Positions 1 through 27,658 of a stretch of 64,000 nt of DNA are shown one piece after another (the first letter of the stretch is position 1; each line of letters starts with the position of its first letter). Origin of the DNA: Candidatus Levyibacteriota bacterium (lineage in GTDB: Bacteria; Patescibacteriota; Microgenomatia; Levybacterales; UBA12049); assembly GCA_963716145.1 (NCBI GenBank), contig OY970292.1, forward strand, positions 597,171-661,170, in the 5' to 3' direction. The position numbers and the translations under genes are program-made. The notes under the pieces were generated by a model that ran no database searches, was not told where the DNA came from, and worked only from the letters and a program-made list of their open reading frames with translations.

Positions 1-1179
1 GCCGGCGCAAACCCCATGATCTTTGCAACCAATAATACCGAGCGGATGAGAATTGACTCCGCTGGCAATGTAGGAATCGGGACGACAGCACCAACTCATC
101 CATTACATGTCGTAGGTACCGCGATAAAAACAGAGCGTTTTGGAGGTACTCCCCAATTTATAGCAAGCAGATCAAATGGCACTTCCGCATCTCCTACTAT
201 AGTTTCAAACGCTAGTACTCTCTTTGCCTTAACGGGTCAGGGATATGATGGAGCAAACTACCAAAATGCTGCACAAATTTTATTTGAAGTGGATAACACC
301 CCTGGGATAGGTGACATGCCGGGTCGTATAAGCTTCTTCACCACCCCGGATGGCAGTTCTACTCCTCTAGCAAGAATGAGAATAGACTCTAACGGCAATG
401 TGGGAATCGGCACCACAACCCCAACCAGTTTCAAACTTGAAATAGCCGGTAACATCGGCCCTGAGGCAGATAACACACGGGACTTGGGATCAGCAAGCAG
501 AAGATGGGCAAATATTTACGCAACAAATATCACAGGGGCTGTGACACCAACAGGATTTACTCAAGGATCAGTAGCCTTTGCAGGAAGCGGTGGCACCCTG
601 AGCCAGGACAATGCCAACTTCTTCTGGGATGATACGAATAATCATCTAAATATTGGTACTACCAATACTACTGCGGGGGGCAGCTTAATCTTTGGCGCAT
701 CTGTTGCAAATATTTCGATGGATACGGTGAACGGGGCGGATAACAAACGTCTTCAACTTAGTAGTGGTGGCAATGATGGTTCAGTTACTCGCGGAGCTTA
801 TATAAATCTTTTTGGCAATGAAACGGCTTCTCAGCCAGGCTATTTAAGCCTTTTAGCCGGTGAGGGTGGAGATATCACCTTCTATGCTCAGCCGGTTGGA
901 TCGTTACTAGAACGAGTAAGAATTACAAGCGCGGGCAATGTGGGGATTGGGACCACCTCCCCTGCTGCTGTCTTGCATACTGCCTCAGATACCAATGGCA
1001 GCGTCCTTTTTTCACAAGCAAGCAACGATGCCAGCACTGCAAATGTAATCATCCGGAAATCAAGAGGAACTCATGCCGTGCCGCTTGATGTACAAAGCTC
1101 AGACGCTTTGGCAATTTTTGGCGGGCCGGTTACACTGGCGGCTCTTCCTGCAAGCTGCTCAATTGAAGGTGGAGGTTGA
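1..1179 (+). CDS. Giant repeat surface/tail-fibre-like protein, segment 1 (5'-partial; ORF 16..1179)
   Basis: Repeated module '...ERMRIDS(A/N)GNVGIGTT(A/S)P...' and 'FKLEIAGNIGPEADNTRDLGSASRRWANIY'. Open at the window start. The frame changes near 1120-1180 into the next ORF. Confidence 0.7.
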   Translation, partial: AGANPMIFATNNTERMRIDSAGNVGIGTTAPTHPLHVVGTAIKTERFGGTPQFIASRSNGTSASPTIVSNASTLFALTGQGYDGANYQNAAQILFEVDNTPGIGDMPGRISFFTTPDGSSTPLARMRIDSNGNVGIGTTTPTSFKLEIAGNIGPEADNTRDLGSASRRWANIYATNITGAVTPTGFTQGSVAFAGSGGTLSQDNANFFWDDTNNHLNIGTTNTTAGGSLIFGASVANISMDTVNGADNKRLQLSSGGNDGSVTRGAYINLFGNETASQPGYLSLLAGEGGDITFYAQPVGSLLERVRITSAGNVGIGTTSPAAVLHTASDTNGSVLFSQASNDASTANVIIRKSRGTHAVPLDVQSSDALAIFGGPVTLAALPASCSIEGGG

Positions 1180-6139: not shown

Positions 6140-7101
6140 GTTGGTTCTTTGATGAAAGCAATAGACGGGGTGGAGTGGGGCTAACAGGTGCCTTGGCCGG
6201 TACAGGTGCCAGTAACGCAACCTTCTCAGTCAGTGGAATTTCAAACCGCAATCTAATTGCCATTCAGGGAGTAGCCGGTCAAACTGCAGACCTTTTTGTG
6301 GTACAAAACAACACTCCAACAACACTATTTGATATCACAGCAGCCGGCAACGTGGGGATTGGCACCACAGGACCAGCTGCACTTCTACATGCGCTCATAA
6401 GTAACAGCGCAAATCCAGTGGCTCTTTTTGAAAGAACTACATCAAGCACCGGGTCATTGGGAATTAATTTCGGTTCCGGTATCTCAAGTTTTGCCAGCGT
6501 TAACGCAATCCGTTTCTCTACTGGCTCAACTGCCGGGACAGGCGGCACAGAACAACTGAGAATTGATACAACCGGCAACGTCGGTATCGGGACGACTGCA
6601 CCGCAGGCCAAACTTCATATTGATCAAGGTAATGTGATAATAGGCGCAGCCTCAGGTGGGACTCAAGATCTTATATTTCGTGAAGACACAACCAATTTAA
6701 TGGGATTTCGCTACCAAGGAGGTCAGTCAGGGAATCCATTAGATATCTATAACTTTCAGACTGCTGCAACACTTGTCAGGATCAAGGAGGATGGCAACGT
6801 TGGCATCGGGACGACTGCTCCCACCTACCGCTTGTCAACTCTCAATAGTGTCTCTACTGCAGGTTCAGCAGTCTCTGCTATCACCAACACCAATACCACA
6901 GACAGTGCCAATACAGTCACTTTGAGGTTAAATACCGGTGTCACATCAACTACTACAAACGCCCGATTCGTAACTTTCTATGCAGGATGCACCACAGAAA
7001 ACTGCGCCGGTACAGCTGTGGGGAACATCTCCATAAACAACGGCAATGTTGCCTACAACACAGGAGAGGGCCGACTTTGCCGAAAGAATGTCGGTTGGTG
7101 A
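6070..7101 (+). CDS. Giant repeat protein, segment 3 (ORF 6175..7101; frame open from 6070)
   Basis: Same GNVGIGTT repeats. Frame 1 is open from 6070 and reads as plausible protein ('GGASNTFRSASSVGWFFDESN'). Confidence 0.6.
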   Translation, partial: RAGGALYFTAGGASNTFRSASSVGWFFDESNRRGGVGLTGALAGTGASNATFSVSGISNRNLIAIQGVAGQTADLFVVQNNTPTTLFDITAAGNVGIGTTGPAALLHALISNSANPVALFERTTSSTGSLGINFGSGISSFASVNAIRFSTGSTAGTGGTEQLRIDTTGNVGIGTTAPQAKLHIDQGNVIIGAASGGTQDLIFREDTTNLMGFRYQGGQSGNPLDIYNFQTAATLVRIKEDGNVGIGTTAPTYRLSTLNSVSTAGSAVSAITNTNTTDSANTVTLRLNTGVTSTTTNARFVTFYAGCTTENCAGTAVGNISINNGNVAYNTGEGRLCRKNVGW

Positions 7102-8389
7102 GTCAACGGAAGCAGGAGATGTGATTGGGGCTGGCTCCTCAGGCAATAGAAAATCACAATCCGGTGACCGGATAATTGGAGTAATTTCAGATAGCGCGGG
7201 CTTTATCGGAAACGATAAGGAAGGACTTGATAAAGCAACTCATCCTGTTGTCGGACTCCTGGGACAGATCCGGACCAAAGTCGCCACAGAATCAGGCACT
7301 ATCAAAAAGGGCGACTTCTTAAGCCTCTCAGCAACTGCCGGTGTTGCTAGGAAGGCAACTTCAGGGGGAGAAGTATTGGGAACAGCTCTAGAAGACTTTC
7401 CTTCGGCAGGCTCAGGACAAGTTGGGGGGGTGGGCAAAATAATGGTGTTGGTCCGCCCGGGCTGGTATATGCCTGATGTTGCTATGACGGATCAGGGACA
7501 GGTGAGCTCAACAAATGAATCTCAAATTGCTGATCTGGGCCTGCCTCTTATTGCTTCTCCCGCAAATAATAATCCTGCCTCCCCTGCCCCAAGCGGGTCG
7601 CTTTCCGATCTGGCAAACCGTGTAACAAAACTTGAAGAACGTGTCACTGCGAGCGGTAGCGCGGCAGTCTCTCCAGACCTGCCTGCCGGCGAGGCAGGGA
7701 TTGCTTCGTCGTCTGCAACTTCTCGCAATGACAATGAGATAGCTGACCTTAATTCTAAATTCTTAACTCTTAATTCTAAGATTGCCTCTCTTGAAGCTGA
7801 TCTAGCTCTATTTGCAAGCGGCTCAGCAGTTCTAAGCCAATCCCCCGCTGCTTCATCAGCTGCAGAACTTGGGCTTGATAAGCTTGATGCAAAAGATGTT
7901 GCTATTACCCGCACTCTCTCAGTTGGCGGAAGAACAACCTTGGGAGATGTTGGAATAACAGGAAAGATGAACATAGGTCTACTCTCAATTGAGGGACTGT
8001 CAGAAAATGGGTTTGCCACAATTAACACAACCTCAGGTCCTCTAAAACTTCAATCAGATTCCGTAAATGGAGTTGATATATTGAATGGAAAAGTAGTGAT
8101 ATCAACCAATGGAGATATTAAGACTCAGGGAGAAATTACTGTTAAGAAAGTAAATGTTGATACAGAAGATGTAGCGGGAGCGTCACTGGGAACAGCCACA
8201 ATAGTGGATGGCGAAACGATAGTTTCAGTTCAGACATCTGCCCTGACCGATAAATCTAAGGTCTTTGTGCAGGCAGTTGATAGTCCGGTAGCAACCGCTG
8301 TTAAGAAAACAGGCGCTGACACATTTGATATCAAAATACCGGCAGCAGTAAATAATGATCTAAGACTCAATTGGTGGATAGTTAATTAA
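7046..8389 (+). CDS. Giant repeat protein, C-terminal segment (coiled-coil plus C-terminal beta-rich domain)
   Basis: Heptad-like 'LSDLANRVTKLEERV...IADLNSKFLTLNSKIASLEADLALF' followed by a C-terminal globular domain. Overlaps segment 3 in another frame. Confidence 0.6.
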   Translation: MLPTTQERADFAERMSVGESTEAGDVIGAGSSGNRKSQSGDRIIGVISDSAGFIGNDKEGLDKATHPVVGLLGQIRTKVATESGTIKKGDFLSLSATAGVARKATSGGEVLGTALEDFPSAGSGQVGGVGKIMVLVRPGWYMPDVAMTDQGQVSSTNESQIADLGLPLIASPANNNPASPAPSGSLSDLANRVTKLEERVTASGSAAVSPDLPAGEAGIASSSATSRNDNEIADLNSKFLTLNSKIASLEADLALFASGSAVLSQSPAASSAAELGLDKLDAKDVAITRTLSVGGRTTLGDVGITGKMNIGLLSIEGLSENGFATINTTSGPLKLQSDSVNGVDILNGKVVISTNGDIKTQGEITVKKVNVDTEDVAGASLGTATIVDGETIVSVQTSALTDKSKVFVQAVDSPVATAVKKTGADTFDIKIPAAVNNDLRLNWWIVN

Positions 8390-9693: not shown

Positions 9694-10410
9694 ATGATAA
9701 TAGAATCTGGCTTAATACAAAATTTTCTACTTGCAGCTTCCTTCGCTGCTTTATTTGCAGCAATTACATTTATGTTTATGCGCGTATTTAAAAAAGAGGA
9801 TAAGCCCGACAAAACTGATATAAAACCCACTGAAAAACAAAGCCTTTCAACATATAAAAAAGTGCTTAGCACTGCGCATAAACATGCGAAAACTTTGCTT
9901 TTTGATACAACTGTTGAAGCTGTAAATATAATCGCGGGAACTAAACAAACCAACGAACATATGGAGGAACAGCTGGATAAAGTTCTCCAATCAGTGGCTG
10001 TCAAAGAAATTCACACTCTCAAAACCTCAACAGACTCATATGAAAATGATTACCAAAAGCAGCTACAAACTATCCAGGAACAGATGCATCAACAAACTCA
10101 GGAGGCTATAGAAAACACCAAAAAAAGCTATGAGGAAAAACTCGATAAGTTTACCAATGAACTTCTCAGAAACGGACTATCAACTCAGGAGCTGGTAGAC
10201 AAAAAGACATCAGAGTTACTCTCTGTTGCTGAAAAGGAAGTTGCCGAATATAAAAAAAACCAGCTTGCTAAAATAGATGATGAGGTCAAAAAAATGCTCG
10301 AAAAGGTTTATAGGGATGTTTTGAGAATTAGTATTCCTGAGAATATTCATCAGGATCTTATCATTAAAAGCCTTGAGGAAGCCAAACGGGATGGACTGTT
10401 TAAACTTTAA
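9694..10410 (+). CDS. atpF: ATP synthase F0 subunit b-like protein
   Basis: N-terminal transmembrane helix followed by a long charged coiled-coil region. Position is between the c-like gene and delta. Confidence 0.5.
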   Translation: MIIESGLIQNFLLAASFAALFAAITFMFMRVFKKEDKPDKTDIKPTEKQSLSTYKKVLSTAHKHAKTLLFDTTVEAVNIIAGTKQTNEHMEEQLDKVLQSVAVKEIHTLKTSTDSYENDYQKQLQTIQEQMHQQTQEAIENTKKSYEEKLDKFTNELLRNGLSTQELVDKKTSELLSVAEKEVAEYKKNQLAKIDDEVKKMLEKVYRDVLRISIPENIHQDLIIKSLEEAKRDGLFKL

Positions 10411-10521
10411 CAATTTTCAATTTGAAATTTACAATTTTCAATCAAATTACAATGACACAATTTTAAAATTTAAACATTAAAAATTCAATGAAAATTAAAA
10501 ACTGAAAATTAAAAATTATCT
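10411..10521 (+). repeat. ~105-bp intergenic leader module (full copy A)
   Basis: 'caattttcaatttgaaatttacaattttcaatcaaattacaatgacacaatttt...attcaatgaaaattaaaaactgaaaattaaaaatt' immediately upstream of atpH. About 95% identical to 13445..13550. Confidence 0.8.
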
Positions 10522-12550: not shown

Positions 12551-13444
12551 ATGGCACAGCAAAAACAATTACAGGAAGATATAGCAATCAATAAAGATTT
12601 CAAGCTATTAACCCGCTCTTACCAAGAACACGCAATTGAGCAGATTAATTTTGCAAGATACTCTGTCCTGGGATCAAGAGAATTTTCCGGTGATCTTTCA
12701 GATATTTTCGCCAATGTAAAATCTTCATACAAAAACCTGCTTCAAAGAAGAAATATTAAAAGTATTGTCAAAAAAAATGGCCGGGATGCTTGGGTCTTAA
12801 TCACGGCAAATAATAAGCTTTATGGAGATCTTATCCTGAAAATTTGCCAATTGTTTGCGGAAAATGTAAAAAAAAGCAATCCAAACAAGGTCGATTTAAT
12901 AATAATAGGCCGCCAAGGGAGAAACTTTTTTGAGGAACTTAAAACACAGAGACCTTATACATACTTTGAGGTACCGGACTTTAATGTAAGCGCGGATTAT
13001 ATGAAAGAAATTTGCCAAAACTTTATCTTGTATGAAAATATCATCGTGTACTATGGAAGGTTTAATAATATTGTTTCCCAAGCCCCTATCATCGTTTCCC
13101 TCTCGGGAGAGATTACAGAAGGAAAAGACCAGGAAAATGCAAACGTATCAAAAATAATCCCTGACGCAGGACAAAAAAAGGAGAATTTTATTTTCGAACC
13201 GTCGCTTGAAGAAATACTCATCTTTTTTGAAAAACAAGTTTTATCTCTCCTTTTAAATCAGGCTATTCAGGAAGCGCAATTGGCCCGCTATGCGTCCCGT
13301 ATAAACGCTATGGAGATAGCCCAAACTAACATCAAAAAACAACTTTACCGTTTAAAGCGGGAGGAAAAGATGTTCAAAAATATGTCTATGAACAAAAAAC
13401 AGCAGGAGCTATTGGCTGGAAGAGCACTCTGGGCAAAGAAATAA
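12551..13444 (+). CDS. atpG: ATP synthase F1 subunit gamma
   Basis: 297 aa. Lies between alpha and beta with the typical coiled N- and C-terminal helices. Confidence 0.7.
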   Translation: MAQQKQLQEDIAINKDFKLLTRSYQEHAIEQINFARYSVLGSREFSGDLSDIFANVKSSYKNLLQRRNIKSIVKKNGRDAWVLITANNKLYGDLILKICQLFAENVKKSNPNKVDLIIIGRQGRNFFEELKTQRPYTYFEVPDFNVSADYMKEICQNFILYENIIVYYGRFNNIVSQAPIIVSLSGEITEGKDQENANVSKIIPDAGQKKENFIFEPSLEEILIFFEKQVLSLLLNQAIQEAQLARYASRINAMEIAQTNIKKQLYRLKREEKMFKNMSMNKKQQELLAGRALWAKK

Positions 13445-14924
<1,480 letters not shown>

Positions 14925-16379: not shown

Positions 16380-16429
16380 ACAATTAGTATAAAGTATTTT
16401 TAGAAAGTATCAAAATGGGTTTCAACTTG

Positions 16430-16501
16430 TATCCCTGAAGGGAATCGAACCCCCATCTCGCCCTTAGGACGGGCTTGCTCTATCCATTGAGCTACAGGGA
16501 C
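16430..16501 (-). tRNA. tRNA-Arg (anticodon CCT)
   Basis: Reverse complement 'GTCCCTGTAGCTCAATGGATAGAGCAAGCCCGTCCTAAGGGCGAGATGGGGGTTCGATTCCCTTCAGGGATA'. D-arm GCTC/GAGC; anticodon loop GTCCTAA; T-loop TTCGATT; 7-bp acceptor stem with G·U at 1:72. CCA is not encoded. Confidence 0.7.
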
Positions 16502-16585
16502 ATATATTGTATTCTAGCATAGAAGAAAGTAGAATAAATGTTTTACAATTTCTCCAGCTTCAGCTATACTAACCTTCTGTAATTT

Positions 16586-17314
16586 ATGGAATTGCCAAAA
16601 TTTATCCCCCGATATATTGGAGAATATAAGCCTGTTGATCATGGTGTAAAAGCCGACTGCGTAAGAGTTGGAGAAAGCGGATTGGTATATAAAGCGAGAA
16701 AAAAAGCAGTTAAGACTGCAGAAGAGGCTGAAAGGCTTGCGGGTGAGATGCAAAGAGATTACAGATTATTATCAAAATATTTGGGTCCATACGTTTCTTC
16801 AACCCAGTTTGTGATAGGAGATGGAAGTGACGGACCAACGGTTTTTGCATTTCAAGAAGAAATAAAAGATGGCATGAGTATTAAGCAAGCCCTAAAACTT
16901 GCACGGAAAGAAAATTTGAGCATTGAACATATAGTAGATTTATATAGCAGAGCAGGGGAAATGTACAAAGCAACCGGAAATCCACCTGATTTCAATGGCA
17001 CCGGACGCTTTCTCGGTTGGCCTAGACCAAACTCCACCCGGAATGTACTAGTAACTGTAAAGGAAGTTGATGGACAAAAAATGCTTTGGCCAAACGTAGT
17101 TGATGTCGGGCTTATCCGAGAGGGATATCTAACCCAACGCACTCATAAGGGTGTTCTTGCAAGGAGTATTTTCGACCAACATCTTGAACTAAGCGCTGTC
17201 GGGAGAGGCACATTGCGGGTAACGGATAATTCTGTCGATATAATTCCTATCGACCGAGCGATGCAAAGAGAAATAAAGGAATCCAAGAGACGCCATCCCA
17301 CCGCGCGATTTTGA
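16586..17314 (+). CDS. Hypothetical protein (242 aa; GC-richer than neighbours)
   Basis: Long ORF with no recognisable motif. Lies between the tRNA and the sigma-factor cassette. Confidence 0.4.
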   Translation: MELPKFIPRYIGEYKPVDHGVKADCVRVGESGLVYKARKKAVKTAEEAERLAGEMQRDYRLLSKYLGPYVSSTQFVIGDGSDGPTVFAFQEEIKDGMSIKQALKLARKENLSIEHIVDLYSRAGEMYKATGNPPDFNGTGRFLGWPRPNSTRNVLVTVKEVDGQKMLWPNVVDVGLIREGYLTQRTHKGVLARSIFDQHLELSAVGRGTLRVTDNSVDIIPIDRAMQREIKESKRRHPTARF

Positions 17315-17320
17315 GGTTAA

Positions 17321-17352
17321 TTACTTCAACTCTTCTTCGAGATAAACGTGGA
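17321..17352. repeat. 32-bp direct repeat, left copy (a duplicated copy of the ndk 3' end)
   Basis: 'ttacttcaactcttcttcgagataaacgtgga' versus 18081..18112 'ttacttcaactcttcttcgaggtaaacgtgga' (31/32 identical). The reverse complement encodes '...HVYLEEELK*', which is the Ndk C-terminus. Confidence 0.85.
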
Positions 17353-17417
17353 TGTCATCTTTTATATACTTACTGTTTCCGGCCTACTCAAGAATATGTT
17401 ATAATCCAAAATAAATT

Positions 17418-18065
17418 ATGGGAATTGAGAGGATTGAGGACCTACAAGGAGAAAATTTGGAAGAACTTTTAGCTCGTTGGCATGAAGGCGACCCAGTAGA
17501 TAGAATAAGAAGGGCCAAAACAGGAGACGAAGCTGCGATAGTAGAAGTAGTTACCTTAATGCATCCATACGCGTTGGCAGTTGCGGGAAGTTTAATGCCG
17601 GGATCTGCTGAAGCTGAAGACTTGGCACAACAAACGATGTTAAAAGCTTTAATATACTTAAACAGGTTCAGAAACCAGAATGCTGAGGCATTTCCAAATT
17701 GGATAAGTCGGGTTGTAAAAAATGATGTAGTTCGTGCAAAAAGAAAGATGGAAAGATCTATCCCTACTGACCCTCATATTTTGGATGAAATGAAATCCTC
17801 CGATGAGCCTTTTGAAGATGAGTCTATTAGAGTAATAGATCATCCTAGGCTAGAGCATGCAATGCGTACTTCCATAGGAGCACTGAGCGGAAGTCAAAGA
17901 ACCGTAATGTTGGGACTTACAGGAAAAGGTATATTTCCCGGTGATGATCATCTTTTATATAAACAATTAGCAAGAAGAGATGGTATACCAGTAGGCAGCA
18001 TTGGTCCGACCCGACGAAGAGCTTTTACACATTTAAGACCAGCGCTGAGAGAATTTAGGGGTTAA
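17418..18065 (+). CDS. ECF-type sigma-70 family protein (regions 2 and 4)
   Basis: Region 2-like 'DLAQQTMLKALIYLNRFRNQNAEAFPNWISRVVKNDVVRAKRK' and a C-terminal HTH-like region. Flanked by the 32-bp direct repeats. Confidence 0.5.
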   Translation: MGIERIEDLQGENLEELLARWHEGDPVDRIRRAKTGDEAAIVEVVTLMHPYALAVAGSLMPGSAEAEDLAQQTMLKALIYLNRFRNQNAEAFPNWISRVVKNDVVRAKRKMERSIPTDPHILDEMKSSDEPFEDESIRVIDHPRLEHAMRTSIGALSGSQRTVMLGLTGKGIFPGDDHLLYKQLARRDGIPVGSIGPTRRRAFTHLRPALREFRG

Positions 18066-18080
18066 TATCTAAAACGGAGT

Positions 18081-18112
18081 TTACTTCAACTCTTCTTCGA
18101 GGTAAACGTGGA
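18081..18112. repeat. 32-bp direct repeat, right copy (the native ndk 3' end)
   Basis: See 17321..17352. Confidence 0.85.
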
Positions 18113-18545
18113 CTTCTTCTGATTTATTCCATTCAAATATCTCATCTGCGTCAAACATTATTTTTATCTCTCTTTTTGCGATTTCTGCATCTTCTGATGC
18201 GTGTACCAGATTATATTGCTGGCTCATGGCAAAGTCACCTCTTATTGTCCCCGATTCCGCGTCCCTAGCTTTTGTAATACCAATCATCTTGCGCACAGTT
18301 GCAACACATCCTGCTCCCTCCCAGACCATAGCGACTATCGGATAAGACTTCATATATGACTTCAGTGCCGGGAAAAAAGGCTTATCTTTGTGATGAGCGT
18401 ACCATTCTTCAAGAAGAGTATCTTCAAGCGAGACCATCTTAATTGAGGCCAATTTGAGACCTTTTCTTTCAAAACGGTGAATTATCTCACCAATCAGGCC
18501 TCTTTGTACTCCGTCAGGTTTTACCAAAACTACTGTTTGTTCCAT
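18081..18545 (-). CDS. ndk: Nucleoside diphosphate kinase
   Basis: 'VVLVKPDGVQRGLIGEIIHRFERKGLKL...NLVHASED', with the active-site His in NxxHxS. Confidence 0.9.
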   Translation of the reverse strand: MEQTVVLVKPDGVQRGLIGEIIHRFERKGLKLASIKMVSLEDTLLEEWYAHHKDKPFFPALKSYMKSYPIVAMVWEGAGCVATVRKMIGITKARDAESGTIRGDFAMSQQYNLVHASEDAEIAKREIKIMFDADEIFEWNKSEEVHVYLEEELK

Positions 18546-18622
18546 AATAATTAGCTAATGGCCAATAGCGTATGGCTTATGGTTTCTATTTGCCATATGC
18601 CATTTGCTATACGCAAGGGATA

Positions 18623-19897
18623 TTATAATTTTAACAGCGCTTCTAGTTTTTGTCTATCTTCAAAATTACCAATCAAAGCAAGATTAAGGGTGTTTTCGAT
18701 GAAAAACTCTTTTCCTGCCTGTTCTACCTCTTCTTTTGTGACGTTATCCAAGTGGGCCAAAATCTGGTCAGGATTTTCAATTTCGTTTTCCAAAAGCTCC
18801 TGATGTCCATAAAATCCTGCAACTGAATTGCTGTCTTCAAGCCCAAGAACAAGATGCCCCTTCAGAAATTCTTTTGCCTTTGCAAGCTCTTTATCTGATA
18901 ATTCCATCTTTCCACTCGCCACCTTACTATACTCTGAAAGAATTACTTCTATTGCTTCTACAACTCTTTTTGGGTCAATTCCGGCGTTTGAAACCAAAGT
19001 ACCGGCATCCGTGTACTCATCGGAATTGGATCTGATGTAGTAAGCAAGTCCTCTCTTCTCACGAACTTCGTGAAATAATCTGCTGGACATTCCCCCACCA
19101 AGTATTGCGGCTAAAACAGACAATGGATATTTTTTGGATGATTTAAGTGAAACAGTCCTTACTCCCAAGGCAATATGAATCTGTTCTGTTTTTTTGGTTT
19201 TTATAAAAACTGCAGGTTTTGTCTGGTTTTCGGAAAGCGCCAATGGCTTGCCGGTTGCAAACTGTTTCATTGAAGAGAAATATTTCCCAACCAATCCTTC
19301 GGCAAGCTCAGGATCGATGCCTCCGGCAACGACTACAGTCATGTTGTCAGCGCTATAAAGTCCTCCCATGTAGTCACGGAAATCCTGCTGTGTGATTGTC
19401 TTGATATTTTCCTTAGGTCCCGCGATATCCCATCCCATCGGGGTATCGCCATATAGCAATTCTTCGTACAAGTCCCCAAGTTTTCGCATCGGATTATCCT
19501 CAATCATGTTAATCTCCTCCATTATCACTCCCCGCTCCTTGTCGATTTCTACAGGATCGAGTTTGGAATTCTGGAGCATGTCTGAAAGAAGATCAAGAAG
19601 GGTCTCAAGCTTTGCTTTTGCCGCCTTAATGTAATAACCTGTTATTTCTTTGCCGGTAAAAGCATTGAATTCCCCTCCAATTCCATCGATTAATGAAGAA
19701 ATCTCCATTGCGCTTGGCCTTTTCTCAGTTCCCTTAAATGCCATGTGCTCAAAAAAGTGGGAAATCCCATTATTCTTCTTATTCTCATAGCGGCTACCTG
19801 CCCCAACCATGACTATGACTGTAACGCTTTCAAGGGAGGGCATGGGAACTGTTATTACGCGGAGACCATTGGGAAGGAGTGTGCGCTTAAATTGCAT
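18623..19897 (-). CDS. M16-family (insulinase/pitrilysin) zinc peptidase
   Basis: Inverted zinc motif 'HFFEHMAFKGT' (HxxEH). 424 aa. Confidence 0.8.
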   Translation of the reverse strand: MQFKRTLLPNGLRVITVPMPSLESVTVIVMVGAGSRYENKKNNGISHFFEHMAFKGTEKRPSAMEISSLIDGIGGEFNAFTGKEITGYYIKAAKAKLETLLDLLSDMLQNSKLDPVEIDKERGVIMEEINMIEDNPMRKLGDLYEELLYGDTPMGWDIAGPKENIKTITQQDFRDYMGGLYSADNMTVVVAGGIDPELAEGLVGKYFSSMKQFATGKPLALSENQTKPAVFIKTKKTEQIHIALGVRTVSLKSSKKYPLSVLAAILGGGMSSRLFHEVREKRGLAYYIRSNSDEYTDAGTLVSNAGIDPKRVVEAIEVILSEYSKVASGKMELSDKELAKAKEFLKGHLVLGLEDSNSVAGFYGHQELLENEIENPDQILAHLDNVTKEEVEQAGKEFFIENTLNLALIGNFEDRQKLEALLKL

Positions 19898-19960
19898 TCG
19901 AGCCTTATTATAGCAAATTCGTGTGTTATTTAAAAGGTTTATTATGTAGGGACTCAGCTA

Positions 19961-21145
19961 CTATGCTGCTTTCAAAGCTTCTGTTACTCTTTTACTTGGT
20001 AAGGTACACTTAATTGAAATGGCATCCGATATCCTGTCTGACACGCTGTGTAATATATCAGTCTTTTTGGGTTCACGTACTTTCATTATTGCCATCTCCG
20101 AAACCACCTGCTTAAGCCTTTCACGAGCTTTTAGGATATCAAGCGAAGGATCAATTTCCTTTTTATACCGGTCAATTACAGCGAACAAACTCGACACATA
20201 TTGTCTTATTGCCTCAGCACACGCTTCCTCGCTTTCCAATAAATTATTGATCCCGTATTTGTGCATTTCGCCTGCAACGATAAGAGCGGGAACGCCCAAC
20301 TCCGGTAGATCTCCATCTTCTACCAATATATCCATTGCGTCTTTTGTTTTTAATACATAAAGGCCATTGCGGGCATTGATCCATTCTAGACCGGAAATAT
20401 TATTTGTAGCTATATCCATTAGTTTTTTATTGCGTTCATCAATGGCACTGGTATATGCCGGTACTTGTTTCTTTGGATATTCTGAACTAAATAAGTGGAA
20501 CTGCTTTGATGCTGCAGAAAGCCCAAATAACCCAACTGCTGCAAGCCTTAACGCATCTCTCCTACTAAAACTAGGCTCATCAACTTCTGCTAGTGCCAAG
20601 CTTAGCGCTGTAACTGCCGCAGTTAAAGCAATATCTTCTATTCTTGCTGATTGGCTAACAGGAGGATTAATAGCAGGCACCATTCTTTCGGCCGTATCCT
20701 TTCCCTTGCTTAATCCTTTTAGCTGATTGGAAACAATTCTATCTTTTAATCTTTGGTCTAAAGAATCTTCTGGGGAAAAAGCGAAATTATTTGCAGTTAT
20801 AGTATCTGCTGCAACAAGCCAAATCCCATCACGTCCGATATCACTTGGTCTGGCAGGCAAATGCAACCAGGTATTCATTTTCATACCATGAGTGTCGCGA
20901 TGAGTAGAAACGTTAACGCTGCTTAAACTATCAATAGTCAAAATCTGCGGACGGCATCTTTTTACACTATCCCTAACTTCTTTAAACCATACAGATGCAT
21001 TTAAATCACCGTTTTCAAGCTGTGTATACAGCCCCTTTACTCCGCTAGGTTCTACATGTAGTCCCAATCTGGCAGAAATATTATAATATGGATTTACTAA
21101 TTGCTCCCTTCTGGGTAAATGTCGAACCTCTGCCAAGCTTGTCAT
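19961..21145 (-). CDS. Hypothetical protein (394 aa)
   Basis: Long ORF with no recognisable catalytic motif. Contains an internal 'SRRDALRLAAVGLFG' twin-arginine-like stretch. GC-richer than its surroundings. Confidence 0.4.
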   Translation of the reverse strand: MTSLAEVRHLPRREQLVNPYYNISARLGLHVEPSGVKGLYTQLENGDLNASVWFKEVRDSVKRCRPQILTIDSLSSVNVSTHRDTHGMKMNTWLHLPARPSDIGRDGIWLVAADTITANNFAFSPEDSLDQRLKDRIVSNQLKGLSKGKDTAERMVPAINPPVSQSARIEDIALTAAVTALSLALAEVDEPSFSRRDALRLAAVGLFGLSAASKQFHLFSSEYPKKQVPAYTSAIDERNKKLMDIATNNISGLEWINARNGLYVLKTKDAMDILVEDGDLPELGVPALIVAGEMHKYGINNLLESEEACAEAIRQYVSSLFAVIDRYKKEIDPSLDILKARERLKQVVSEMAIMKVREPKKTDILHSVSDRISDAISIKCTLPSKRVTEALKAA

Positions 21146-21167
21146 TTGGCGAGATTATATCATAGCC

Positions 21168-22640
21168 TTACACTCCTTGTCTGTTTGTCAGCTCTCTGAG
21201 GAAAAGATTGTAATCAAACTGGTTTACTGCTCCGTCATCATCCAAATCGGATAGCAAATTATTTGCTGCGGTGCAAGAGACGGCAGGTAGGAAATCAGAA
21301 TAGCATCCCATCAAAATATTGTAATCAAGGATATTAATTACATTGTCTCCATTAATCTCACCATTTATTAACACTGTTTGAGGCATTTGATTAGTTGTTC
21401 CTGCGGTTATTGTCTGAATGCCCGGAACTAAGGATTTTAAGAACTGGTTTGTCTTTACTTTTACCGTATATGCACCGGTTACAAAAGCGCTACCCATATC
21501 AATATTCCCCGTGAATTTGCCGGAAGTTGAATTATAGTTAACAGCTCCGTCTTTTGTTGCTACCAATTGGTTCTGAGCATTGAGCACTTCAACTCGTACA
21601 TTTCTTTGTGGGTGCAATGGGTCGGGATTTCCCCCTGATGCCGGATTCGCGCTATCCCCACCCTGACCTATTCCATGAAGAAGAAGAGTTAGGGACAAAG
21701 TTGTATTACCTGGAGCCGGAGTTGATGTTGGAGTGATTGTAGGACTTGGAGTAGTTCCTCCTTCAGCTCTAGTGTGATCGTAAGAGTTTGGGTTGCTGGC
21801 ACTTCCATCTGTGTGGCATATAGGATCTCCACCGTCAATTAAACCATTGTTGTTATTGTCTCTTGAGTCAGCGCAGGTTGCTCCGTTTCCGCCCTGTTCC
21901 CCAGGTCTTGTAGGGTCGTAACTGTTGGGATTATTTGGATTATTGTCTGTGTGACAGGTTGAATCCAAATTGTCTTTGAAACCATTGTTATCGTTATCAA
22001 TGTTGTCTGAGCATCTTGAAGGAGGAGTGGTTACCGTGGGATTGACAGTCCCTTCATTTCGCGTAGGGTCATATGGATTATTTAGATTTCCACCTGTGTG
22101 ACAAGCAGGATCCCCCGCATCAATCAACTCATTCTGGTTATTGTCAATTCCATCAGCACAAGTTGCAGGAGGTGAAGTGGGTGAAGGGGTGGGGCTCGGA
22201 ACTGTAGTAGGACTTGGTGTTGGAGTTGGACTTGGGATTGGAGTTGGGGTGATCCGCATACTTCCACACGCTGCTGATGAGCTGAGATTATTACCTGTGC
22301 CGTTATTGTTGCCGGTAAGCCCCTGATGAATTGTATTGTTGTTACCGGTAAGATTACCTATCATGCCAGCACACACTTCATTACCATGCCCTGTTAAGTT
22401 CCCTATATATCTTCCTGTAATCAGATTCCCGTTCCCATACATATTCCCTTGGAAATCCCCATTTACTGTACAATTGTTAACATGCAGATCGCTTGCTCTG
22501 TTGGGACAGGTAGTTTCCGCAGCATTTGATCTTGTTTCCTGTCTTTGCTGACTGACCAAAACACCGCCGAAAAGCCCAAAAACAAGCACTATCCCTACCA
22601 ATACGGGTAATTGTTTTCTGGAGAATAATTTTTTTAGCAT
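21168..22640 (-). CDS. Secreted Cys/Asp/Asn-rich repeat protein with C-terminal dockerin-like domain (paralog 1)
   Basis: N-terminal signal anchor. Three 'C(A/S)D.IDN..N..ID.GDP.CHTD.N.NNP.SYDPTR' repeats. Pro/Thr linkers. C-terminus 'INGDNVINILDYNILM...DLDDDGAVNQFDYNLF' looks like duplicated dockerin type-I Ca-binding segments. Confidence 0.6.
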   Translation of the reverse strand: MLKKLFSRKQLPVLVGIVLVFGLFGGVLVSQQRQETRSNAAETTCPNRASDLHVNNCTVNGDFQGNMYGNGNLITGRYIGNLTGHGNEVCAGMIGNLTGNNNTIHQGLTGNNNGTGNNLSSSAACGSMRITPTPIPSPTPTPSPTTVPSPTPSPTSPPATCADGIDNNQNELIDAGDPACHTGGNLNNPYDPTRNEGTVNPTVTTPPSRCSDNIDNDNNGFKDNLDSTCHTDNNPNNPNSYDPTRPGEQGGNGATCADSRDNNNNGLIDGGDPICHTDGSASNPNSYDHTRAEGGTTPSPTITPTSTPAPGNTTLSLTLLLHGIGQGGDSANPASGGNPDPLHPQRNVRVEVLNAQNQLVATKDGAVNYNSTSGKFTGNIDMGSAFVTGAYTVKVKTNQFLKSLVPGIQTITAGTTNQMPQTVLINGEINGDNVINILDYNILMGCYSDFLPAVSCTAANNLLSDLDDDGAVNQFDYNLFLRELTNRQGV

Positions 22641-22685
22641 GGATAATTTATGTATAATTGCTACCTAATTATAAGTAGAACAGAA

Positions 22686-23586
22686 CGGGTAAGCTTTGTC
22701 AAGAATAATGCTTATACTCCCTGCCTATTTGTCAGCTCTCTGAGGAAAAGATTGTAATCAAACTGGTTTACATGACCATCGTCATCCAAATCGGCTAACA
22801 AATTATTTGCTGCAGTACAGGAAACGGCAGGCGTAAGATCGGAATAGCATCCTATCAAAATATTGTAATCAAGGATGTTAATGGTGTTGTCTCCGTTAAT
22901 CTCACCATTTATCAATGTTGTTTGAGGCATTTGATTAACTCCTCCCGCAATTATATTTTGAATACCGGGAGTTAATGCTTTTAAGAACTGATTTGTCTTT
23001 ACTTTTATGGTATAAACTCCGCTTACGAGAGTAGTCCCCGCATCAACAGTTCCTGTGAAATTACCGCCAGTTGTACTGAAATTAACTACTCCGTCTTTTG
23101 TTAAGATCAGCTGGTTCTGAGCATTGAGCACTTCAACTCGTACATTTCTTTGTGGGTGCAGTGGATGTTGATTTCCCCCTGATCCAGGATTGGCGCTATC
23201 CCCCGCACTACCAATACCGTGAAGTAGAAGATTGAAAACCAGACTCGTGTTTCCGGGAACAGGTGTTGAGGTAGGAGTTCTAGTTGGTGTAGGCGTGAGA
23301 GTTGGCGGTGTGGTTGGTGAAGTCTCATTTCTACTAGGATCGTAAGAGTTTGGATTATTTGGATTTCCGTCTGTGTGGCAGATTGGATCTCCACCGTCAA
23401 TCACACCGTTATTGTTGTTATCTCTTGAATCAGCACAGGTATTCCCTCCCCCTTGCTCTCCCGGTCTTGTAGGATCGTAGCTATTGGGATTATTTGGATT
23501 ATTGTCTGTGTGACATGTTGAATCAAAACTGTCTTTGAAACCATTGTTATCGTTATCAATGTTGTCTGAGCATCTGGAGACGGGAG
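22686..23586. repeat. ~900-bp identical direct repeat (3' halves of paralogs 2 and 3, copy 1)
   Basis: DNA identical to 24298..25198. The two copies diverge at ~23587 and ~25199. Confidence 0.85.
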
Positions 23587-24253
23587 TGGTCACTGGAGGA
23601 GTTACTGTAATAGTAAGTCTAGGAGTTACTGTAGGAATAGAGCCTTCATTTCTGGTAGGGTCATAGGTATTTGGATTGTTCTGATTGCCATCTGTGTGAC
23701 AAGCCGGATCTCCACCATCAATCAACTCATTCTGGTTATTGTCAATTCCATCAGCGCAAGTTGCTGGAGGTAGGGTGGGACTGATAGTTGCGGATGGACG
23801 TACTCCGCATGGCGTGGAAGCATTTGTGATATTTCCTGTTCCGTTTATCGGGCCGCCAACTCCTCCATGAATTATGTTGTTGTTGCCGTTTATACCACCA
23901 TTTAGTCCGCCGCAGATGTCATTGCCATTGCCGCGAATAGTCCCGTTCATTCCTCCCATTATTATATTGTTGTCACCGGTAATGTTCGCCGGGAAGCCTC
24001 CCAATCCTCCACGAATTGTATTTCTACTTCCAAAAATACTGCCATTAAAGCCGCCATCAATAGTGCAGTCATCAGCGGTCAGATCCTGACCCGGTCCAAC
24101 AGTAGTGCAGTTTCCGGTTCCTCCGCGGCCTGCAGCGCTACTTCTTTGGTCCTGCTGCTGCTGACTAACCATCACCGCGCCGAACAGGCCAAAAACCATA
24201 ACAACACCTACTAGTATCGGAAGACTAGATTTTGAAAAAAGTTTTTTTAGCAT
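22712..24253 (-). CDS. Dockerin-domain Cys/Asp-rich repeat protein (paralog 2)
   Basis: Same architecture as paralog 1. The C-terminal ~295 aa are identical to paralog 3. Confidence 0.6.
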   Translation of the reverse strand: MLKKLFSKSSLPILVGVVMVFGLFGAVMVSQQQQDQRSSAAGRGGTGNCTTVGPGQDLTADDCTIDGGFNGSIFGSRNTIRGGLGGFPANITGDNNIIMGGMNGTIRGNGNDICGGLNGGINGNNNIIHGGVGGPINGTGNITNASTPCGVRPSATISPTLPPATCADGIDNNQNELIDGGDPACHTDGNQNNPNTYDPTRNEGSIPTVTPRLTITVTPPVTTPVSRCSDNIDNDNNGFKDSFDSTCHTDNNPNNPNSYDPTRPGEQGGGNTCADSRDNNNNGVIDGGDPICHTDGNPNNPNSYDPSRNETSPTTPPTLTPTPTRTPTSTPVPGNTSLVFNLLLHGIGSAGDSANPGSGGNQHPLHPQRNVRVEVLNAQNQLILTKDGVVNFSTTGGNFTGTVDAGTTLVSGVYTIKVKTNQFLKALTPGIQNIIAGGVNQMPQTTLINGEINGDNTINILDYNILIGCYSDLTPAVSCTAANNLLADLDDDGHVNQFDYNLFLRELTNRQGV

Positions 24254-24297
24254 AAATTAACTATATTAAAATTGGCCTAACTATAGTAGAACAGATA

Positions 24298-25198
24298 AAA
24301 TTATACTTTGTCAAGAATAATGCTTATACTCCCTGCCTATTTGTCAGCTCTCTGAGGAAAAGATTGTAATCAAACTGGTTTACATGACCATCGTCATCCA
24401 AATCGGCTAACAAATTATTTGCTGCAGTACAGGAAACGGCAGGCGTAAGATCGGAATAGCATCCTATCAAAATATTGTAATCAAGGATGTTAATGGTGTT
24501 GTCTCCGTTAATCTCACCATTTATCAATGTTGTTTGAGGCATTTGATTAACTCCTCCCGCAATTATATTTTGAATACCGGGAGTTAATGCTTTTAAGAAC
24601 TGATTTGTCTTTACTTTTATGGTATAAACTCCGCTTACGAGAGTAGTCCCCGCATCAACAGTTCCTGTGAAATTACCGCCAGTTGTACTGAAATTAACTA
24701 CTCCGTCTTTTGTTAAGATCAGCTGGTTCTGAGCATTGAGCACTTCAACTCGTACATTTCTTTGTGGGTGCAGTGGATGTTGATTTCCCCCTGATCCAGG
24801 ATTGGCGCTATCCCCCGCACTACCAATACCGTGAAGTAGAAGATTGAAAACCAGACTCGTGTTTCCGGGAACAGGTGTTGAGGTAGGAGTTCTAGTTGGT
24901 GTAGGCGTGAGAGTTGGCGGTGTGGTTGGTGAAGTCTCATTTCTACTAGGATCGTAAGAGTTTGGATTATTTGGATTTCCGTCTGTGTGGCAGATTGGAT
25001 CTCCACCGTCAATCACACCGTTATTGTTGTTATCTCTTGAATCAGCACAGGTATTCCCTCCCCCTTGCTCTCCCGGTCTTGTAGGATCGTAGCTATTGGG
25101 ATTATTTGGATTATTGTCTGTGTGACATGTTGAATCAAAACTGTCTTTGAAACCATTGTTATCGTTATCAATGTTGTCTGAGCATCTGGAGACGGGAG
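24298..25198. repeat. ~900-bp identical direct repeat (copy 2)
   Basis: See 22686..23586. Confidence 0.85.
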
Positions 25199-25865
25199 TT
25201 GGTGTTGGTGTTATAGTTGGCCTCAATGTTGGAGTAGGTGTGCTGGTTGGAATCCTAGTTGGGGTTGGAGTAGGTACGCGGCTAGGAGTTGGTGTTGGAA
25301 GATTAACCTCAGATCTGTGAGAGTCATATGAGTTGGGATTGTCCTGGTTACCGTCAGTATGGCAGGCAGGATCACCTCTATCAATCAGTTCATTTTGGTT
25401 ATTGTCAATTCCATCAGCGCAAGTTGTGGGTGGTGGCGTTGGCGAAGAGGTTGGAGTTATATATGGATTGGGCGAGCATCCGCCAATGTTGGCCACTTGC
25501 CTTGCAGTATTACCGCTTCCACGCATACTTCCTAAAACATTATTTCCAACATGATTGTTATCCCCTGTCACACAACCCGCGACATTATTCCCAATTCTAT
25601 TACCATTACCGAATACATTTCCTACATTATTTGTTATATTGTTATTATTTCCAATCAAATACCCAGAAACATTAACTGCAGTACAGTTATCGGCGATTAG
25701 ATCCCCATTCGTATTTGCGCTGCAATTGCCGGCAGCATTTGATCTTGTTTCCTGTCTTTGCTGACTGACCAAAACACCGCCAAAAAGCCCAAAAACCAAA
25801 AGAACGCCGGCAACAATTGAAAATTTTGTTCCAAATGAAAGATTTTTGAGGCTGTAAAAACTCAT
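24324..25865 (-). CDS. Dockerin-domain Cys/Asp-rich repeat protein (paralog 3)
   Basis: Same architecture. Divergent N-terminal ~215 aa. Confidence 0.6.
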   Translation of the reverse strand: MSFYSLKNLSFGTKFSIVAGVLLVFGLFGGVLVSQQRQETRSNAAGNCSANTNGDLIADNCTAVNVSGYLIGNNNNITNNVGNVFGNGNRIGNNVAGCVTGDNNHVGNNVLGSMRGSGNTARQVANIGGCSPNPYITPTSSPTPPPTTCADGIDNNQNELIDRGDPACHTDGNQDNPNSYDSHRSEVNLPTPTPSRVPTPTPTRIPTSTPTPTLRPTITPTPTPVSRCSDNIDNDNNGFKDSFDSTCHTDNNPNNPNSYDPTRPGEQGGGNTCADSRDNNNNGVIDGGDPICHTDGNPNNPNSYDPSRNETSPTTPPTLTPTPTRTPTSTPVPGNTSLVFNLLLHGIGSAGDSANPGSGGNQHPLHPQRNVRVEVLNAQNQLILTKDGVVNFSTTGGNFTGTVDAGTTLVSGVYTIKVKTNQFLKALTPGIQNIIAGGVNQMPQTTLINGEINGDNTINILDYNILIGCYSDLTPAVSCTAANNLLADLDDDGHVNQFDYNLFLRELTNRQGV

Positions 25866-25927: not shown

Positions 25928-27658
25928 TTACATTTTTGAAGGAGCTTCTATTCCTAGAAGATTCAGGCCTTTTTTAATCACTTCTCCTGTTTTGGATGTT
26001 AGAGCCAAACGAAAATCTTTACTCCCCTCCTCGGCCTTTAAAATTTGATGTTTTTGATAAAAAAGATTAAAACCTTGAGCAAGCTCAAAAAGATATGTCG
26101 CTACAGCACTCGGGCTCAACCTCTCCGCAGCCTCAATGATTACATCGTCAAATTTTGCCAGCAAACGAAGTAGCTCTCTCTCCTCAGGTTCAAATTCTCC
26201 TTTGAAATTGGAAATTGGAAATTGGAAATTGGAAATTCCTGCTTTTAGCAGCACACTCTGTGTGCGAGCATAAACATACTGTATATATGGTCCTGAATTT
26301 CCATCAAAGCTAATTGACTCTTCCAAATCAAATGCAATCTCCTGCTGTGTCGAAACTTTAAGAAATGAATATTTTACTGCAGCGACTGCAACCTTCTCGG
26401 CAATAATTTTTTGTTCCTCTTTTGTATAGTCTGATGCATTTTTATCTAGAATATCAATTATTTCTTTTTTTGCTTCATCAATGAGCCAATCTCCCAATAT
26501 CACGTTTCCGGATCTTGAGTTCATTTTACCGTGTTTTAGCTTGACCCACCCATAAGCCAAATGTTTCTCCTTACCACGCGTCTCCGGAAAAAGCTGAGCG
26601 AGCGCTTCAAAAACAACCTGAAAGTATCCCGACTGTTCAGGACCCACAACGTGGATAATCAAATCAGGATTATTTTCTTCAAATTGCAATGGCCCGAGCC
26701 CCATATCCTTGCCTTCGTAGGTTGGATTTCCCTCACTCGTAATAAATACTCTGTCATGAAGACCAAATTTTTTGCCGGGGAAAATAATCGCCCCATCGCT
26801 TTTTTCAAAAACTCCTTTTGTAAGCCCCTTCAAAACATTTTCTTTACCGGTCTCATATACCTCACTCTCAAAATAATAGCGGTCAAAATGAGCGTAAACT
26901 CTTTTGTAAATTTGTTCAAAGTAATCAAGGCTCCACTGCCTAGTGGTTTGGTAAAGCTCCCAAATAGACTTGTCTTTTGCATAGATTTTTTTGTTGATTT
27001 CACCAATTTCTTTTTTCGCATCCGGATTTTCTTCATAAGCTTTACTGCCTGCTGCATACGCTTTACCCAATAAATTAATTTTCTGTTCTAAGTTTAATTC
27101 TGAATTCTGAATTCTGAATTCTGAATTCTGCAAAATGCCGTACAGGCATTTTGCAATATGCATTCCAACATCTCCCTGATAATTTCCGCGGACTACTTTT
27201 GCACCCACAGCCTCAAGTAAACGCACAATTGACTCGCCGGTCGCAATATTGCGCAGATGACCGATGTGAAACGCTTTGTGGGTATTTGGGTGAGCAAATT
27301 CAACCAATATTTTCTTACCGGTAAGAGAAGTTTTATTTTTTTTACTATCTAAGTCTGTCAAACTATCAATTAGTGTATCATTTGAGATCCAAAAATTGAT
27401 AAACCCCGGCTTTACGACTTCCATTTTTTCAAAAATCCTTAATTCTTTATTCTTACTTCTTAATTCTTCTGAGATTTCCTCCCCCAACTCCATAGGATTT
27501 TTACCAAGTTTTTTACCTGCAACCAATGCTATGTTACTGGAATAATCCCCATGTTTTGGATCAGCCGGATAGTCGACTTTGACCTCAATATCACCCAATC
27601 CTATTTTTTCCAGAATTTCACCTAATTCTTCTTTTATTGTTTGTTTAATCATAATCAC
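25928..27658 (-). CDS. argS: Arginine--tRNA ligase
   Basis: 576 aa. 'HIGHLRN' class-I motif. The C-terminal anticodon-binding domain ends in '...APSKM'. Contains two in-frame heptamer microsatellites. Confidence 0.85.
   Translation of the reverse strand: MIMIKQTIKEELGEILEKIGLGDIEVKVDYPADPKHGDYSSNIALVAGKKLGKNPMELGEEISEELRSKNKELRIFEKMEVVKPGFINFWISNDTLIDSLTDLDSKKNKTSLTGKKILVEFAHPNTHKAFHIGHLRNIATGESIVRLLEAVGAKVVRGNYQGDVGMHIAKCLYGILQNSEFRIQNSELNLEQKINLLGKAYAAGSKAYEENPDAKKEIGEINKKIYAKDKSIWELYQTTRQWSLDYFEQIYKRVYAHFDRYYFESEVYETGKENVLKGLTKGVFEKSDGAIIFPGKKFGLHDRVFITSEGNPTYEGKDMGLGPLQFEENNPDLIIHVVGPEQSGYFQVVFEALAQLFPETRGKEKHLAYGWVKLKHGKMNSRSGNVILGDWLIDEAKKEIIDILDKNASDYTKEEQKIIAEKVAVAAVKYSFLKVSTQQEIAFDLEESISFDGNSGPYIQYVYARTQSVLLKAGISNFQFPISNFKGEFEPEERELLRLLAKFDDVIIEAAERLSPSAVATYLFELAQGFNLFYQKHQILKAEEGSKDFRLALTSKTGEVIKKGLNLLGIEAPSKM
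26204..26238. repeat. Tandem heptamer (gaaattg)x5 inside argS, encoding 'GISNFQFPISNF'
   Basis: Perfect 7-bp tandem repeat that keeps the reading frame. Confidence 0.9.
27096..27130. repeat. Tandem heptamer (aattctg)x5 inside argS, encoding 'QNSEFRIQNSEL'
   Basis: Perfect 7-bp tandem repeat that keeps the reading frame. Confidence 0.9.

Follow-up and report, generated by a model that had tools for sequence, protein, structure and literature searches.

The ndk 3′ end and its duplicate

The stretch of DNA analysed here, referred to as the window, comprises 64 kb of a 1.14-Mb genome of the Levyibacteriota, a phylum of the candidate phyla radiation (CPR). Within it, a hypothetical gene (hyp242) and a gene for a sigma factor of the extracytoplasmic function (ECF) type lie between tRNA-Arg(CCT) and ndk, and the sigma gene is bracketed by two copies of the 3′ end of ndk. 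The features of the locus, by window coordinates, are the following.

16429–16501, minus strand: tRNA-Arg(CCT), identified by ARAGORN and by Rfam (tRNA, 56 bits), conserved beside sortase in relatives
16586–17314, plus strand: hyp242, 242 aa, no Pfam or NCBIfam family; older resident of the interval
17321–17352, minus strand: orphan ndk 3′ end, whose minus strand reads HVYLEEELK and stop
17353–17417, plus strand: sigma upstream region, with an extended −10 element, TGTTATAAT, at 17397–17405
17418–18065, plus strand: ECF-like (group IV) sigma-70 family gene, intact, 215 aa, with a Sigma70_r2 domain
18066–18080, no strand: spacer of 15 nt between the convergent sigma and ndk stop codons
18081–18112, minus strand: resident repeat copy, the functional last 10 codons and stop of ndk
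18081–18545, minus strand: ndk (nucleoside-diphosphate kinase), Pfam NDK 174 bits, 2e-51; NCBIfam 181 bits
17353–18112, no strand: inserted unit of 760 bp, that is, 728 bp of cargo and one repeat copy (17321–18080 is equivalent)

The direct repeat, TTACTTCAACTCTTCTTCGAG(A/G)TAAACGTGGA, is identical at 31 of 32 positions, with exact stretches of 21 and 10 nt, and its copies are spaced by 760 nt from start to start. With up to three mismatches tolerated, just these two matches were found in the 64 kb, where none was expected from 100 shuffles. In a repeat scan of the whole window the pair stood apart as a family of just two copies and differed from the coding repeats and the AT-rich intergenic motifs found elsewhere in it. 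The right copy provides the end of ndk (...HVYLEEELK and stop). As the same tail, EEVHVYLEEELK with its stop codon, also closes ndk in the closest relatives, including those with a 95% identical ndk, the right copy is native and the left one an orphan. No open reading frame (ORF) precedes the orphan, which is separated by 6 nt from the stop codon of the convergent hyp242. The first-pass annotation of this DNA had described a sigma gene bracketed by 32-bp direct repeats next to tRNA-Arg(CCT), the right copy being the real end of ndk and the left one its duplicate, and this description was borne out in each of these points; the repeat is not a common intergenic motif.

Comparison of the orphan with ndk alleles showed 31 of 32 matching positions with the window's own ndk and 29 or fewer with every other allele. 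The orphan is thus nearest to the gene of its own genome, which points to a recent and lineage-specific insertion. An extension of the repeat to 47 nt is weak, and the idea that the orphan is a ~49-nt remnant of a foreign ndk allele was rejected, the next 17 nt matching the resident ndk at 10 of 17 positions, which is the background of unrelated ndk tails.

The 728 bp between the copies consist of 65 nt carrying the extended −10, the 215-aa ORF and the 15-nt spacer. Terminal inverted repeats were not found at the ends of this cargo, and no transposase was present in it according to the ORF list and Pfam. The features of a transposon or insertion sequence are therefore missing, the duplications at this and related loci (see below) being moreover long and variable in length. 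An exact 14-mer, TCATCTTTTATATA, was observed at 17355–17368, where it abuts the orphan tail, and again at 17948–17961 inside the sigma ORF; the similarity reaches ~18 nt with a 1-nt indel and may be due to chance or be a trace of a junction-forming event.

Since the genome is metagenome-assembled and the repeat holds exact 21- and 10-nt stretches, a chimeric join at a common k-mer might be thought to have made a false insertion. We give this explanation almost no credence, because an independent Logan contig (L001, k=31) of 4,759 nt is identical to window 16455–21213 and spans hyp242, sigma, ndk, the M16 gene and the gene after it. Furthermore, a chimera would give a junction rather than a complete promoter-bearing gene flanked by a duplication, and analogous structures are present in unrelated assemblies.

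The sigma gene and its probable expression

The 215-aa protein is assigned, on its sequence, to the sigma-70 family and within it to the ECF type, as the first-pass annotation had it. Pfam PF04542 (Sigma70_r2) matches residues 48–111 with 39.9 bits (cut-off 24), the ECF superfamily model TIGR02937 aligns over residues 44–207, and the best PDB matches are SigW and SigH (E 1e-4). The protein can be aligned in regions 2 and 4 only, regions 1.1 and 3 being absent. In its length of about 200 aa, its sigma-2 domain, its alignments over residues 25–210 and its SigW/SigH matches it resembles the ECF (group IV) factors. It differs from them in that the TIGR02937 score (37.1 bits) is under the cut-off of 42.9, no Pfam region-4 match was obtained, and region 4 contains an insertion while the N-terminus is extended by ~25 aa. 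A co-encoded anti-sigma factor is typical of the ECF family, and not obligatory; here neither an anti-sigma gene nor a dedicated regulator lies next to the sigma gene, whose neighbours are just hyp242 and the convergent ndk. A single-sequence AlphaFold2 (AF2) model of the protein was confident for the N-terminal half only and, being too poor, was not used.

A word-indexed search of 5.8 billion proteins returned the sigma protein itself and eight matches of at most 31% identity, and in an exhaustive HMMER search of 1.84 billion representatives the best non-self match had an E-value of 4e-14, with 33–38% identity over residues 25–210. By Logan contig and protein searches the gene was found on this chromosome alone. 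In the databases searched it is an extreme singleton, with nothing above ~38% identity to it. Its composition is that of the host. Against 44 background ORFs (mean GC 0.414, sd 0.037), the sigma gene has a GC content of 0.419 (z +0.1) and hyp242 one of 0.428 (z +0.4); GC3 of the sigma gene is slightly low (z −2.2) and its codon-usage score is normal. The two genes had been singled out at first as GC-richer than their surroundings, and this did not survive the GC and codon check.

As regards expression, the extended −10 TGTTATAAT was read directly from the sequence ~12 nt before the sigma ATG; a two-hexamer promoter scan did not list it because its −35 is weak. With so short a distance, the mRNA would be nearly leaderless, and no Shine–Dalgarno sequence is evident ahead of the gene. 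The co-directional hyp242 lies upstream, and no terminator was predicted between the two genes. The repeat itself was considered as a terminator and discarded, none being predicted there, and Rfam revealed no known RNA element other than the tRNA in the intergenic regions. Given the intact ORF, the good extended −10 and the lack of a predicted terminator after hyp242, expression of the sigma gene seems probable, whether its own promoter, read-through from hyp242 or both are used.

A different use of the duplicated tail was also weighed. ECF promoters have AAC in the −35 and CGT in the −10 element, and the plus strand of both repeat copies reads TCAAC-N16-CGT, which is found nowhere else in the 64 kb. 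The left copy, 66–97 nt upstream of the sigma ATG and in the correct orientation, could then serve sigma as an autoregulated promoter, while the right copy would drive a sigma-dependent antisense transcript into ndk. Nevertheless, the motif is the reverse complement of conserved ndk codons (HV… LK and stop) and is present in relatives that have no sigma gene. Its two matches compare with 1.1 expected, which is not significant (28 of 100 shuffles reach two), and the conventional extended −10 is nearer to the sigma gene. A promoter function of the tail is accordingly rated as highly improbable.

The ndk–tRNA interval in related genomes

Using ndk as a probe, loci were collected from species-representative genomes (80 loci) and from metagenomes (80 loci), nearly all of them from Levyibacteriota; with further loci added from Logan, JGI and ENA contigs, ~170 loci in total were compared (individual loci carry L numbers). 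The gene order M16–ndk–[gap]–tRNA-Arg(CCT)(±tRNA-Pro CGG)–sortase–atpC/atpD is conserved throughout these loci. The gap is effectively empty in L063 (10 nt), L005 (52 nt) and L048 (63 nt), and in other loci it is longer than 5 kb. Of the 230 ORFs counted in the gaps, 114 are singletons. Judged from this variation in gene content, the interval from ndk to tRNA-Arg(CCT)/tRNA-Pro(CGG) is a gene-turnover hotspot in Levyibacteriota.

Horizontal gene transfer hotspots between conserved core genes often adjoin tRNAs. The present interval is like them in its conserved flanks (ndk on one side, tRNA-Arg and sortase on the other), in its strain-specific contents and in that half of its ORFs are singletons; it differs in being described here for a CPR phylum and in its recurring ndk-tail scars (see below), which such hotspots do not normally show. 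The variable genes are situated 5′ of tRNA-Arg, whose 5′ end faces them, and no partial tRNA copy was found in the window, so that the term tRNA-adjacent island, applied to the locus at first, finds no support. In L084 (4253–4443), and also in L090 and L145, tRNA-Arg(CCT) or tRNA-Pro(CGG) is flanked by partial copies of itself (in L084, for example, of 36 and 22 nt with 100% identity), which hints at separate tRNA-side rearrangements or insertions in some genomes.

Neither tblastn (1e-5) nor phmmer against all ORFs (E<1) detected a homologue of the sigma gene in the ~170 related loci. The relatives nearest by ndk identity are L003 and L167 (95%), L168–L170 (90%) and L087 (88%), and the gap contents differ in each of them. 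Neither the sigma gene nor an ndk-tail duplicate was present in the closer relatives from Logan, JGI and ENA, with ndk 90–95% identical. Consequently, there was no relative that carries the sigma gene and lacks the duplication. One of 95 representative hotspot proteins matches the PHROG RNA polymerase sigma factor family (E 1.8e-24); by phmmer it is unrelated to the sigma factor of the window.

The gene hyp242 has three homologues of 54–58% identity, and in two genomes, L084 and L086, these occupy the tRNA-proximal end of the same locus. On this ground hyp242 is judged to be older than the sigma insertion, and the proposal that both genes were acquired as a unit is not sustained. The newest genes of the hotspot lie beside ndk, and in the window, L084 and L086 hyp242 and its homologues lie beside the tRNA, an order that agrees with genes being added from the ndk side. 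In L083 a gene for a 217-aa protein follows the hyp242 homologue; it is unrelated to sigma, and a conserved two-gene module of sigma and hyp242 was rejected. The hyp242 protein carries a C-terminal extension of 36 aa not present in its three homologues. A kinase-like fold was considered for it from an AF2 model (pLDDT 62) with weak matches to PI4K-II and PknB, and was used for no conclusion.

In L086, the hyp242 homologue converges on ndk, and the two stop codons are 3 nt apart. This layout equals that of the window minus the 760-bp unit, the orphan of the window being located 6 nt from the hyp242 stop, and L086 is therefore regarded as an empty site for sigma, with the caveat that it is not a very close relative (hyp242 homologue 55% and ndk 87% identical). 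The comparison of the locus in related genomes thus provides both the absence of sigma and the empty-site layout.

The host-like GC and codon usage of the sigma gene would also suit a history with no horizontal transfer at all, in which sigma is ancestral and was lost in all sampled relatives, the repeat arising by a local tandem duplication and a subsequent deletion. This would demand loss in ~170 sampled loci, including relatives whose ndk is 95% identical, for a gene that has no relative above ~38% identity anywhere. It would also leave open why nothing but the ndk tail is duplicated and why the orphan is placed exactly where ndk would end in an L086-type layout. Such a history seems very unlikely to us.

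When the final 200 nt of ndk were compared with the sequence downstream of the gene in 141 loci, six of the loci proved to carry orphan ndk tails.

Window: orphan tail of 32 nt; cargo, the sigma gene
L034: orphan tail of 161 nt, 98% identical; cargo, a 158-aa ORF
L142: orphan tail of 32 nt, 87.5% identical; cargo, an AbrB-like and PIN-like pair
L004: orphan tail of 50 nt, 98% identical; the end of the BrnA gene abuts the orphan
L084: orphan tail of 34 nt, 91% identical; the end of the BrnA gene abuts the orphan
L087: orphan tail of ~51 nt, in frame; the end of the BrnA gene abuts the orphan

The orphan directly follows the BrnA 3′ end in L004, L084 and L087, where the cargo is BrnT/BrnA and the orphan tails, taken as a group, are ~51–57 nt; these three scars probably descend from one older event. 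From the sequences compared, at least four independent duplication events can be counted, the window included. For L034, the uninterrupted ancestral context is found in an empty-site relative, L052. In all events the outer (distal) end of the duplication is within 7 nt of the ndk stop, and the inner (proximal) end varies. Where the orphan differs from the resident tail in L084 and L087, it does so mostly in third codon positions, a pattern that suits allelic ndk tails from other lineages and not decaying local copies. With the genes on either side taken as controls in the same loci, tail duplications were seen in 0 of 123 loci for M16 and 0 of 40 for sortase, compared with 6 of 141 for ndk, a contrast that mostly reflects the hotspot abutting ndk.

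Some further observations concern these and neighbouring loci. A toxin–antitoxin operon abuts the orphan tail in two of the four independent events; the coordinates are L004 4351–5283, L084 ~7736–8350 and L087 4136–4756 for BrnT/BrnA, and L142 5990–6692 for the AbrB-like and PIN-like pair. Genes for four-helix-bundle proteins of the 23S_rRNA_IVP type occur at differing positions of the hotspot (L004 4300–4908, L087 4814–5371 and L168 6155–6712). The L004 insertion rewrote the last two ndk codons (LK-stop to LR-stop, TAA to TAG) and is followed by repeats of the type TAGTTGG…ATAGG. Between ndk and M16 of the window, at 18546–18622, there is a palindrome-rich intergenic motif (AGCGTATGG … GCCATTTGCTATACGC), which contains the sole terminator-like hairpin near ndk and resembles sequence just downstream of ndk in L034 (6904–6990) and L052 (6463–6550).

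Elsewhere in the window, three tandem paralogous units of ~1.6 kb, with segments 79–100% identical, occupy 21150–25800, beyond a 394-aa ORF next to M16. Very large repeat-protein genes, with ~20 copies of a unit encoding …GNVGIGTT.P…, are located at 1–7000 and 60800–64000. A 56-nt AT-rich intergenic motif, 96% identical between its copies at 10409–10464 and 13440–13495, precedes two atp-operon genes, and short tandem arrays of GAAATTG/GAAATTT heptamers are found in several intergenic regions (26201–26239, 37042–37094 and 54855–54907).

Origin of the insertion and its meaning

The sigma unit represents a recent, lineage-specific duplicative insertion behind ndk, and we consider with moderate confidence that an integrase-independent, homology-anchored mechanism is the most likely cause. 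In the older layout, tRNA-Arg would have been followed by hyp242 and then by ndk, the latter two being convergent. Foreign DNA of 728 bp, on which a single ECF-like sigma gene is preceded by an extended −10 of the sigma-70 type, would then have entered directly behind the ndk stop. In the course of this the last 32 nt of ndk would have been duplicated, leaving ndk intact and the orphan tail beside the hyp242 stop; the orphan would represent a scar and not a functional att site.

Two routes can be envisaged. A circularised fragment carrying an ndk tail may have been integrated by a single crossover, or a linear fragment anchored in ndk may have entered by homology-facilitated illegitimate recombination (HFIR), with an illegitimate join a few tens of nt upstream of the resident ndk stop. 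The homology-anchored explanation fits the conserved anchor, the outer end that coincides with the end of homology, the variable inner end and the unrelated, small, recombinase-free cargoes. Both ndk and M16 are conserved in all loci, and the duplications end within 7 nt of the ndk stop. No choice is made between crossover and HFIR, as there is no donor in the databases and 32 nt are short for RecA.

Both routes have precedents. When a circular molecule integrates by a single crossover, part of the homologous locus is left in two copies, 109–950 bp in the experiments reported (PMC3240628). The window is like this Campbell-type integration in that the insert is flanked by a direct duplication, the variable length of which is set by the segment carried. 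It differs from it in the length of its repeat, 32 nt, and in that the sigma unit was not seen in circular form. Homology-anchored displacement, on the other hand, leaves orphaned 3′ gene ends in type VI secretion system (T6SS) and Rhs loci (PMC5361080). The HFIR and the sequential or C-terminal displacement invoked for T6SS effector–immunity, Rhs and contact-dependent inhibition (CDI) loci share with the present case a one-sided conserved anchor, new DNA placed beside it, older material pushed distally, orphaned 3′ ends left at former boundaries and no integrase (PMC5361080 and references therein). In contrast to those loci, the anchor in the window is a housekeeping gene, its tail is restored unchanged and not swapped for a new toxin domain, and the cargo of the hotspot is arbitrary (sigma, toxin–antitoxin operons, hypothetical genes).

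Several points weigh against this account. No donor was found in the databases searched, and with sigma relatives at ~38% identity or less the incoming molecule cannot be reconstructed. A repeat of 32 nt is barely long enough for a crossover that depends on RecA. The microhomology that can be discerned by eye at the inner junction is weak, ATAAA at most. HFIR at lacZ was expected to yield a deletion, duplications being attributed to circular molecules (PMC3240628). Finally, the absence of an integrase refers to the 25 of 78 Pfam and 25 of 30 PHROG families listed, in ORFs of at least 170 aa, and further copies of the 32-mer were sought within 64 kb of the 1.14-Mb genome.

The origin of the sigma unit had been put down originally to site-specific integration into the ndk 3′ end or to a duplicative insertion. 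The latter is in line with the absence of sigma from ~170 loci and with the empty site in L086, and the former is not upheld. According to it, the 32-mer would be an att core and the sigma cassette a decayed or non-autonomous passenger, resembling a cis-mobilizable element (CIME) or a satellite, mobilised in trans by an integrase that recognises the 3′ end of ndk. Islands and prophages that an integrase has placed in the 3′ end of a tRNA or protein gene, and CIMEs as their derivatives without an integrase, are indeed similar to the window in their flanking repeats and in a target 3′ end that is duplicated and restored. In the window, a small cargo lies between nearly identical direct repeats, a conserved gene is targeted at its 3′ end, which is restored, and this end was struck repeatedly across the phylum. 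However, the repeat lengths and the inner boundaries differ between events (32, ~51–57, 161 and 32 nt), so there is no fixed core, and the cargoes are unrelated. The cargo of only 728 bp contains no integrase, and the families listed for 95 representative hotspot proteins from ~165 loci (25 of 78 Pfam and 25 of 30 PHROG) include one DDE transposase and no integrase. No inverted repeat or other motif is common to the cargo ends, no attP-bearing element was seen, the genes lie 5′ of the tRNA, and the sigma-carrying unit occurs in this genome only. A degenerate ndk-tail motif gave no match in IMG/VR viral contigs, plasmid collections and the rest of the genome not having been searched. With no integrase seen among the families listed, no inverted repeats and no viral-contig match, the notion of a decayed or hitch-hiking element is not supported either, and we regard site-specific integration as unlikely.

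A more far-reaching possibility can also be considered. The ndk 3′ end may be a dedicated landing pad for small cassettes in Levyibacteriota, reflecting an undescribed CPR capture mechanism, with the leftover tail in this genome co-opted as an ECF-type promoter. Capture and exchange would proceed by an unknown trans-acting recombinase or by transformation-driven, homology-anchored uptake, and the cassettes would be regulators and toxin–antitoxin pairs. If this were true, TCAAC-N16-CGT would place under the new sigma factor both its own expression and an antisense control of ndk. Taken as a whole, the combination appears quite improbable.

The event is of a known type, in which DNA enters a gene-turnover hotspot with a conserved gene, here ndk, as its proposed anchor, and its scar is fairly ordinary. 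Two points are mildly notable, namely that ndk-tail scars recur across a CPR phylum and that the sigma factor is an orphan. If active, this factor would provide a rare second and highly divergent promoter specificity in a 1.1-Mb genome, from a regulatory gene gained with no sign of mobile-element machinery. CPR bacteria, with their tiny genomes and few regulators, lack a genetic system, and for these reasons gene gain in them is inferred only from scars such as that of the window. The locus represents a clean before-and-after case, in which a relative with the empty site can be set beside the orphan tail and the intact anchor gene. Current views are not overturned by it; it is a modest and useful case study, in which the recurrent ndk scar suggests that genes are gained by recombination anchored on conserved genes, with DNA uptake as a plausible first step.

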